IMG/VR virus record: IMGVR_UViG_2531839665_000013
Strand: one strand, 5' to 3'
DNA from: a virus
Lineage: Duplodnaviria; Heunggongvirae; Uroviricota; Caudoviricetes
DNA: 32,154 nt
Shown piece by piece: positions 6,486 to 6,960 of this stretch. The position numbers and the translations under genes were made by a program. The notes beneath the pieces were generated by a model, which searched no databases, was not told the origin of the DNA, and saw only the letters and a program-made list of their open reading frames with translations. The first letter of the stretch is position 1; each line of letters opens with the position of its first letter.

Positions 6486-6526
6486 TATTCCTCCGGCCGG
6501 GATAGTGTATTAAATCAGATATGGAG

Positions 6527-6571
6527 TGGGCTGTAGTCCGGAAGCCTGAATGACACACGGGGACTACAGCC
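6527..6571. other. Perfect 12-bp inverted repeat GGGCTGTAGTCC / GGACTACAGCCC with 21-nt loop
   Basis: Read directly; no flanking T-run. Confidence 0.5.
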
Positions 6572-6668
6572 CAAGAAATGAAAAAAGGCCACGCAGTTGC
6601 GCAGCCTGATAAACCCTGGTTAAAATCCACACGATAACAACACAACAATATCAGTATCTCATGCTATT

Positions 6669-6693
6669 GCCCGAACCCATTCGGGCATTTTTT
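6669..6693 (+). terminator. Rho-independent terminator on plus strand (GCCCGAA...TTCGGGC + T-run)
   Basis: Stem 6669-6675/6680-6686 followed by a run of T at 6688-6693. Confidence 0.5.
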
Positions 6694-6699
6694 ACCCAT

Positions 6700-6723
6700 A
6701 AAAAAGCCCCTCCGGAGAGGGGC
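6700..6723 (-). terminator. Rho-independent terminator on minus strand (GCCCCTC-CGGA-GAGGGGC + T-run)
   Basis: 7-bp GC stem; A-run 6700-6705 on plus gives TTTTTT after the hairpin on the minus strand. Confidence 0.55.
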
Positions 6724-6960
6724 ATGTTTGCATGCACATTCTTTTTCTTGCATGGTGCCGGGTGCCTCCCGGTGAATTCAGTATCAGCACCTGAATCCGC
6801 GATTATCACATATACCTACTTGCTGATTGCCCCTCCGCACAGGGGGATTCACCATGCCAGTTTCTTTTAACAAACTCCCCGCAAACCAGACAACAGTCAA
6901 CCGCCTGAATTGTGAGACATTTAAAAAAAGCCCGCAAAAGCGAGCCAGGGAAAATAAGTG

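Follow-up and report, generated by a model that had tools for sequence, protein, structure and literature searches.

The stretch of DNA analyzed here, the window, is the whole 32,154 nucleotides (nt) of the IMG/VR virus record IMGVR_UViG_2531839665_000013 (Caudoviricetes). We looked at its segment from 6486 to 6960, which lies between a tRNA-Arg gene and nanS-p. With a probability of about 0.9, this segment is an intergenic small RNA (sRNA) module of a cassette-free lambdoid prophage of the Stx-phage-like type, in whose late operon it separates the insertion site for morons (stx) from nanS-p. The Q gene, the tRNA genes and nanS-p are all encoded on the minus strand of the window, which is the direction of the late operon, and thus the "minus strand" of an initial annotation of this DNA is the phage sense strand. 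Read in the phage sense, the order is tRNA-Arg, a terminator, the empty slot, an STnc100/EcOnc06-type sRNA with its terminator, the convergent AgvB gene, a PasD-type terminator, a leader stem-loop and the nanS-p ribosome-binding site (RBS). The features of the segment and of its two borders are:

6961-7037, minus strand: tRNA-Arg(UCU), called by ARAGORN
6946-6929, minus strand: terminator stem directly after tRNA-Arg(UCU), with a U-run to ~6923 (-11.4 kcal/mol, z = -3.1)
~6876-6922, minus strand: unoccupied moron/stx cassette slot (~47 nt), from the BLAST breakpoints against 933W and Sp10
6694-6886, minus strand: STnc100-family sRNA gene (Rfam RF02076, 149.7 bits against a gathering threshold of 47, E = 2.8e-34)
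6723-6700, minus strand: terminator of this sRNA, stem 6723-6706 and U-run (T6) 6705-6700 (-16.3 kcal/mol, z = -4.4)
6632-6693, plus strand: AgvB anti-sRNA gene (Rfam RF02702, 96.5 bits against a gathering threshold of 56)
6668-6693, plus strand: AgvB terminator, stem 6668-6687 and T6 6688-6693 (z = -4.5)
6597-6626, plus strand: putative sigma-70 promoter of AgvB, TTGCGC 6597-6602, an 18-nt spacer and TAAAAT 6621-6626 (sequence reading)
6607-6580, minus strand: second sense-strand terminator, stem 6607-6586 and U-run 6585-6580 (-14.9 kcal/mol, z = -4.3)
6527-6573, minus strand: stem-loop in the nanS-p 5' leader, arms 6527-6539 and 6561-6573 (13 bp, 100% complementary, 21-nt loop)
6483-6494, minus strand: nanS-p RBS GGAGG (6494-6490) and ATG (6485-6483), the downstream boundary of the module
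4635-6485, minus strand: nanS-p, 616 amino acids (aa), with Pfam DUF1737, SASA and DUF6645

The initial annotation read the gene order as Q, tRNAs, this segment and nanS-p, which is borne out by the Q family PF03589, by the ARAGORN tRNAs and by the three Pfam domains of nanS-p. It also described three structures, and all of these exist after small corrections of their coordinates.

Results

The AgvB gene

The AgvB copy covers model positions 1-62 of RF02702 and is identical to the consensus, and all 62 of its 62 nt are identical to agvB1/agvB2 of E. coli O157:H7 Sakai (Sp10 and Sp17 loci). Its 5' variable region contains the GcvB R1 target consensus CACAACA (6641-6647). A plus-strand terminator had been placed at 6669-6693 with the suggestion that it may end a small plus-strand RNA. 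The terminator was found, with the start of the stem corrected to 6668, and on the basis of the RF02702 match and the identity to Sakai the RNA is AgvB. The putative promoter ends 5 nt before the Rfam start of AgvB and its -10 block is unchanged in the copies of 933W and of the Stx1 phage; it was missed by the consensus promoter scanner and we infer it from the sequence. The AgvB and STnc100 matches abut on opposite strands, 1 nt apart, with nanS-p located downstream.

It was shown that agvB1 and agvB2 are located in Sp10 and Sp17 and that AgvB is an Hfq-bound sponge (anti-sRNA) of the core sRNA GcvB (Tree et al., 2014; PMC4104026). AgvB (EcOnc01a/b) was the most abundant orphan Hfq binding site of that study, with a length of ~60 nt and a mapped primary 5' end, and it relieves DppA of GcvB repression via its CACAACA-carrying 5' region (PMC4104026). 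Deletion of both agvB copies leads to reduced competitiveness in bovine terminal rectal mucus (PMC4104026). AgvB is found at ≥99% identity in 619 of 5426 complete E. coli genomes (~11%), where it is unannotated.

The minus-strand sRNA

The STnc100 match spans model positions 1-206 with a central deletion. In the orientation of the minus-strand RNA, the northern probe of EcOnc06 matches 6781-6815 at 34/35 and that of EcOnc05 matches 6794-6828 at 33/35, and over window 6300-6875 the identity to the Sp17 locus is 98%. EcOnc06 was placed here by its probe sequence; the published coordinates are ambiguous (the genome versions are ~140 nt apart at Sp10). EcOnc06 (Sp17) and EcOnc05 (Sp4) are northern-detected Hfq binding sites of ~177 nt and ~222 nt, and EcOnc06 is ranked sixth by abundance among the orphan Hfq binding sites (PMC4104026, Table S2). 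With a length of 177 nt as in Sp17, measured from the U-run at ~6700, the 5' end of the RNA would be at ~6876, not far from where the Rfam match starts (6886). Since the sequence above ~6875 is unlike Sp17, the promoter or the 5' end of this RNA may differ from those of EcOnc06.

The minus-strand terminator at 6700-6723 was recognized in the initial annotation and proposed to gate late transcription. The terminator is real (stem 6723-6706 followed by T6), and passage of Q-modified polymerase is a reasonable though inferred idea; primarily, however, it is the 3' end of the STnc100/EcOnc06-type sRNA and one of four sense-strand terminators.

The empty cassette slot

The segment had been interpreted as an empty stx position in an Stx-phage-type backbone, and an alignment against 933W had been proposed to define the insertion point. 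In this alignment 933W follows window 7201->6919 at 92%, including the tRNAs and the annotated terminator, and beyond its 1331-bp stx2AB cassette it realigns to window 6919->6378 at 74%, which places the stx2AB insertion point at ~6919-6922. The terminator at 6946-6929 aligns with the 933W locus 2386-2409, a terminator annotated upstream of the stx genes. Sakai Sp10 aligns to 7201->6923 and 6875->6348, and its TciA/TerB moron replaces 6876-6922. The Stx1a phage shares window 6779->6300 at 90%, downstream of stx1B. At the matching positions Rfam gives STnc100 and AsxR in 933W, and STnc100 and an AgvB-like gene in the Stx1 phage. Positions 6486-6875 are thus a flank that is common to Stx1, Stx2 and non-Stx phages and is located downstream of stxB where stx is present.

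Taken with the 933W and Sp10 breakpoints, this common flank leaves only ~6876-6922 as the empty slot. The backbone type and the absence of stx were correctly recognized at the outset, but the 475-nt segment as a whole is not the slot. Residual stx fragments had been named as evidence against an empty position and BLAST found none: blastn (word size 7, E < 1e-3) with window 6300-7300 as the query gave no high-scoring segment pair (HSP) in the stx1 or stx2 cassettes of the Stx1-phage and 933W loci. The window was also considered as a member of the Stx-converting phages and was not assigned to them, as the 933W flanks are contiguous across ~6919 without an HSP to the stx cassettes.

The size of the slot was surveyed in 65 related viral-contig loci that have both landmarks:

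72-102 nt, 35 of 65 loci: empty
766-770 nt, 10 of 65 loci: size of the Sp10 TerB cassette
1309-1422 nt, 18 of 65 loci: size of the 933W stx2 cassette
540 or 827 nt, 2 of 65 loci: not assigned

The nanS-p leader

Two minus-strand terminators within the segment, at 6946-6929 and 6607-6586, were missed in the initial annotation. The latter is followed by a hairpin that had been described as a perfect 12-bp stem at 6527-6571; the perfect stem is real, but it has 13 bp and extends over 6527-6573. The hairpin lies 41 nt upstream of the nanS-p start codon and folds with -28 kcal/mol (z = -5.6), a stability that was reached in 0 of 200 shuffles.

Seventeen distinct variants were aligned from the second terminator to the nanS-p start and their base pairs were counted, with 95.1% of the cells being paired. 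The terminator at 6607-6586 has 99.3% of its cells paired and contains an invariant U.G pair that works only on the minus strand. In the hairpin five pairs are changed on both sides, and the observed covariation score was reached in 0 of 500 shuffles, while sliding the partner by 1-3 columns drops the pairing to 29-42%. The loop is swapped wholesale among the variants and the stem is retained. G.U pairs on the phage-sense strand make up 24 of ~205 hairpin stem cells, and such pairs indicate that the terminator and the hairpin are RNA structures of the sense transcript, in the leader of nanS-p. The hairpin, whose lack of conservation had been named in advance as counting against the first interpretation, is therefore conserved with both compensatory and G.U changes.

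The hairpin has no Rfam match at E ≤ 1, and neither it nor these terminators are mentioned in the searchable literature on nanS-p and the stx flanking regions. It is the only part of the segment that is not matched to a described element. A contig search with the NanS-p N-terminus gave 12 loci with two extra leader types (PasD-type and AT-rich) and no additional hairpin variants.

Just upstream of the RBS, at ~6495-6497, the window reads CCGGCCGG-AGGAAT, and all 31 of 31 other distinct leader variants read ...GGGAGGA.. (most of them CCGGCCGGGAGGA). The window leader is without one G here, with GGAGG kept, and apart from this the E. coli JB2 locus is identical to the window over 1 kb. The missing G may be either genuine variation or an error in sequencing a homopolymer.

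The late operon and neighboring features

Further upstream in the late operon the following features were found:

7051-7127, minus strand: tRNA-Arg(UCG), called by ARAGORN
8305-8282, minus strand: predicted tR', a strong terminator (z = -4.4)
8374-8345, minus strand: pR'-like promoter 3' of Q (10/12 consensus matches)
8414-9229, minus strand: Q antiterminator, 271 aa (PF03589, E = 9.6e-52)

The presence of Q followed by pR' and tR' is what is expected of a lambdoid, Q-antiterminated late operon, with consensus-level evidence for the promoter and the terminator. In the region 6000-9500 there are 9 terminator-like sites compared with 4.0 +/- 2.5 in shuffles. The pR'-tR' pair (8272-8374, minus strand) would yield a short StxS/6S-type transcript in lysogens. 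Rfam Trp_leader and Phe_leader hits at 8277-8407 are sub-threshold and merely reflect the tR'-like hairpin.

Between the predicted tR' and the tRNAs there is an open reading frame (ORF) of 314 aa (7333-8277, plus strand) that opposes the late operon. Its whole length is covered by a match to phrog_7003, a family of unknown function (E = 2.4e-118), and Pfam and PADLOC gave no match; at this position 933W has only terminators and the tRNA promoter. This ORF looks like a reverse-oriented moron. A degenerate ileZ-like tRNA is located at 7138-7206 on the minus strand. Relative to 933W ileZ it has a 4-nt deletion, D-arm substitutions and an altered 5' acceptor end; it was not called by ARAGORN, reaches 36 bits with the Rfam tRNA model and, in the nearly identical locus of JB2, is without PGAP annotation. 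We take it to be a probable pseudo-tRNA.

Downstream, an sRNA gene of the PasC/PasA family occupies 4546-4634 on the plus strand, in the interval from the nanS-p stop (4635) to the holin gene. It is antisense to the late operon, and the PasC northern probe from the literature matches at 4581-4605 with 25/25 nt. A strong plus-strand terminator (stem 4598-4627 and T7) reaches exactly to the nanS-p stop. In an alignment of the region with PasA of E2348/69 the terminator stem shows compensatory changes, and Rfam gave no match here. A terminator-like hairpin of 11 pairs also lies between nanS-p and the holin gene (4423-4397, minus strand).

Discussion

Alternative explanations

The segment could be read without any functional RNA, as the degenerate scar of an stxAB deletion whose hairpins are chance or decaying structures. 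Such a reading would fit the absence of stx where 933W has it, and also the single nucleotide by which the window differs from every other leader variant. Yet the stx1 and stx2 cassettes left no homology in the search given above, the entire module is also located downstream of stxB in phages that do carry stx, and 35 of the 65 related loci have the empty arrangement. Two Rfam families far over their gathering thresholds and structures that are conserved with compensatory changes are equally hard to explain by decay, and a scar is extremely improbable. A coding role was also considered, namely a plus-strand protein of 48-69 aa (6661/6724-6870) of the ECs_3499 type. The ORF at 6724-6870 (plus strand) is called a "hypothetical protein" elsewhere (ECs_3499 in Sakai, a PGAP pseudogene in E. 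coli JB2), so that both annotations do place a coding sequence (CDS) or pseudogene here. However, none of the four segment ORFs of 52-69 aa has a Pfam family, and scans of the segment ORFs with Pfam, PHROGs and PADLOC gave nothing meaningful, the only PHROGs match (0.0084) being at chance level. The C-terminus of the annotated ORF is set by the adjacent cassette and is truncated in the window, its frame is broken between variants by indels of 1, 2, 5 and 10 nt, which are not multiples of three, and the opposite strand encodes the conserved sRNA of the northern-validated type. This hypothetical CDS is most likely an annotation artefact and a small protein is very improbable, in agreement with the early statement that the segment has no credible ORF. 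For the 13-bp inverted repeat alone, one can think of a DNA element, such as a recombination or cassette boundary, a cruciform or a protein-binding palindrome. The region is indeed mosaic, with loops swapped between variants. But the cassette breakpoints are ~300 nt away (6876-6922), five pairs change on both sides with pairing kept, and the G.U cells of the phage-sense strand would become A.C mismatches if the other strand or a symmetric DNA site is considered, and thus a DNA element is unlikely.

Another question is whether the terminators serve mainly as barriers in cis that make nanS-p and lysis strictly Q-dependent, with the short RNAs being by-products that have no trans function in this host. 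Four strong sense-strand terminators do stand between pR' and nanS-p, and the pR' of Stx phages is described as constitutively active, with its transcript terminated during lysogeny (PMC7547250; PMC12078605). Against this, AgvB, encoded by the other strand, has a conserved -10 block of its own and is therefore not a by-product of late-operon termination, a trans function was demonstrated for the identical AgvB (PMC4104026), and EcOnc06 is among the most abundant orphan Hfq sites (PMC4104026). Cis and trans roles are also compatible with each other. We regard the by-product explanation as possible but doubtful.

The sRNA module that we prefer has weak points of its own. The central part of the STnc100 copy diverges from the model, giving 149.7 bits compared with 207.7 for 933W. 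A consensus scan upstream of 6886 and manual inspection found no convincing or conserved sigma-70 promoter for the minus-strand sRNA (a TTGACT at ~6897 is separated by 25 nt from the closest hexamer resembling a -10), the sequence preceding this sRNA varies between cassette contexts, and its 5' end may come from processing rather than initiation. The leader stem is not uniformly perfect either, since a single position is unpaired in 10 of 16 hairpin variants (T.T, the 933W type). In addition, the action of AgvB requires host GcvB and Hfq, neither of which is shown by the window, and Q read-through at these particular terminators is a prediction.

Proposed mechanism and significance

In the lysogen, the three sense-strand terminators of the segment together with the predicted tR' would hold unmodified RNA polymerase off nanS-p and the lysis genes, and after induction Q-modified polymerase would pass all four. 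This gating fits the general Stx-phage model (PMC7547250; PMC12078605). AgvB is expected to be made in the lysogen, to bind Hfq and to pair via its CACAACA region with the GcvB R1 seed, which would relieve dppA-type targets; its function was demonstrated for the identical Sakai sequence and is carried to this host by identity. The minus-strand RNA may likewise be an Hfq-dependent, trans-acting sRNA, by analogy with its Sakai homologues, which were Hfq-recovered and northern-detected. The read-through late transcript carries a perfect AgvB complement, so it could titrate AgvB, or the paired RNAs may be cleaved. As for the leader stem-loop, it would most likely work as an RNA structure of the nanS-p/lysis mRNA, either stabilizing the 5' end or providing a processing site, which is the weakest step of the mechanism. 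One can go further and suggest, only tentatively, that the PasD-type terminator at 6607-6580 and the covarying stem-loop at 6573-6527, which invariably go together, form an undescribed cis-acting RNA element that sets the amount of late or read-through transcript arriving at nanS-p and the lysis genes (for example via processing or stability), perhaps jointly with the AgvB-complementary stretch upstream, with AgvB pairing affecting the fate of the sense transcript.

The source is a non-toxigenic, Stx-phage-like E. coli prophage, and the content of the segment is real but ordinary. The module is already known and widespread, being another copy of a published prophage sRNA module; since the feature was already published, the novelty that had been suggested for it fails. 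Such a module modulates the host regulation of amino-acid and peptide uptake via GcvB, and little new is learned about this from the present copy. There is an annotation gap: RefSeq is without AgvB or the STnc100-type RNA, and some records put a spurious hypothetical CDS over the sRNA. It is also useful that the junction of the stx or moron cassette can be placed within ~47 nt, immediately after the post-tRNA terminator. The remaining item of interest is the conserved terminator and hairpin of the nanS-p leader.

Comparison with known systems

The late operon resembles lambda-type Q antitermination (pR'-tR', with a short transcript of the StxS/6S type), as Q is likewise followed by a promoter-like site, a strong terminator and more terminators before lysis. 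It differs in that Q of the window is a 271-aa PF03589 protein and in having the reverse 314-aa ORF between tR' and the tRNAs.

For lambdoid prophages, convergent sRNA pairs were described that are flanked by the moron CDS downstream of PR' on one side and by a conserved ORF further downstream on the other (PMC4104026). AgvB of Sakai likewise runs antisense to the late operon and lies upstream of nanS-p as in the window, and it shares the terminator and the CACAACA motif. In the Sp10 locus the neighboring slot holds the TciA/TerB moron, whereas in the window it is empty; the AgvB sequence itself is without difference. EcOnc06 and EcOnc05 are likewise convergent with an anti-sRNA, have the same terminator and belong to the STnc100 family. 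The EcOnc27 and AsxR pair downstream of stx2B in Sp5/933W shows the same order (slot or stx, STnc100-type sRNA, convergent anti-sRNA, terminator, hairpin, nanS-p), at ~74% identity over 6919-6378. In 933W, however, stx2AB fills the slot, the anti-sRNA has the AsxR 5' region and targets FnrS and not GcvB, and the hairpin has a T.T mismatch and another loop, unlike that of the window.

PasD1/PasD2 of enteropathogenic E. coli (EPEC) E2348/69 (Pearl Mizrahi et al., 2021; PMC8550237) are located at the same site, directly upstream of the sialate esterase gene. The second terminator of the window (GGCTGCGCAACTGCGTGGCC-T6) is homologous to the 3' terminator of PasD2 in EPEC E2348/69 (GGCTGCGCATTGCGCAGCC-T8; as aligned, GGCTGCGCA-TTGCGCAGCC-T8), and PasD and the window sRNA share the 5' core GCATGGTGAATCC. 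We considered whether the window RNA is itself a PasD, as defined by the probe and the seed region CCUUGUGAG, and it was not assigned as such: the PasD probe has no match in the window at ≤4 mismatches, and only the 5' core and the downstream terminator are common. PasD2 gives 41 bits with the STnc100 model, under the threshold, and from these two results the window RNA is of the STnc100/EcOnc06 type and not PasD. A common ancestry of PasD and STnc100 was stated by Zhu, Shabalina and Storz (2026, preprint, 10.64898/2026.05.13.724894), and the comparison with the window agrees with this.

PasD-type nanS-p leaders (Escherichia albertii, Escherichia sp. and E2348/69 PP2) have a stem-loop right after the PasD terminator, ~100 nt upstream of nanS-p, for example GATCTGCCACTGGCAGATG, which is unrelated in sequence to the hairpin of the window. 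The succession of terminator and stem-loop may thus be a layout that recurs among nanS-p leaders. Unlike the window, the PasD locus has neither an anti-sRNA gene nor the 13-bp hairpin. The homology of the second terminator hints at how the two kinds of loci are related: the sequences suggest that an AgvB-type locus may be a PasD-type locus in which a terminator and anti-sRNA unit was inserted before the old terminator, or that the PasD type may have arisen by the reverse deletion.

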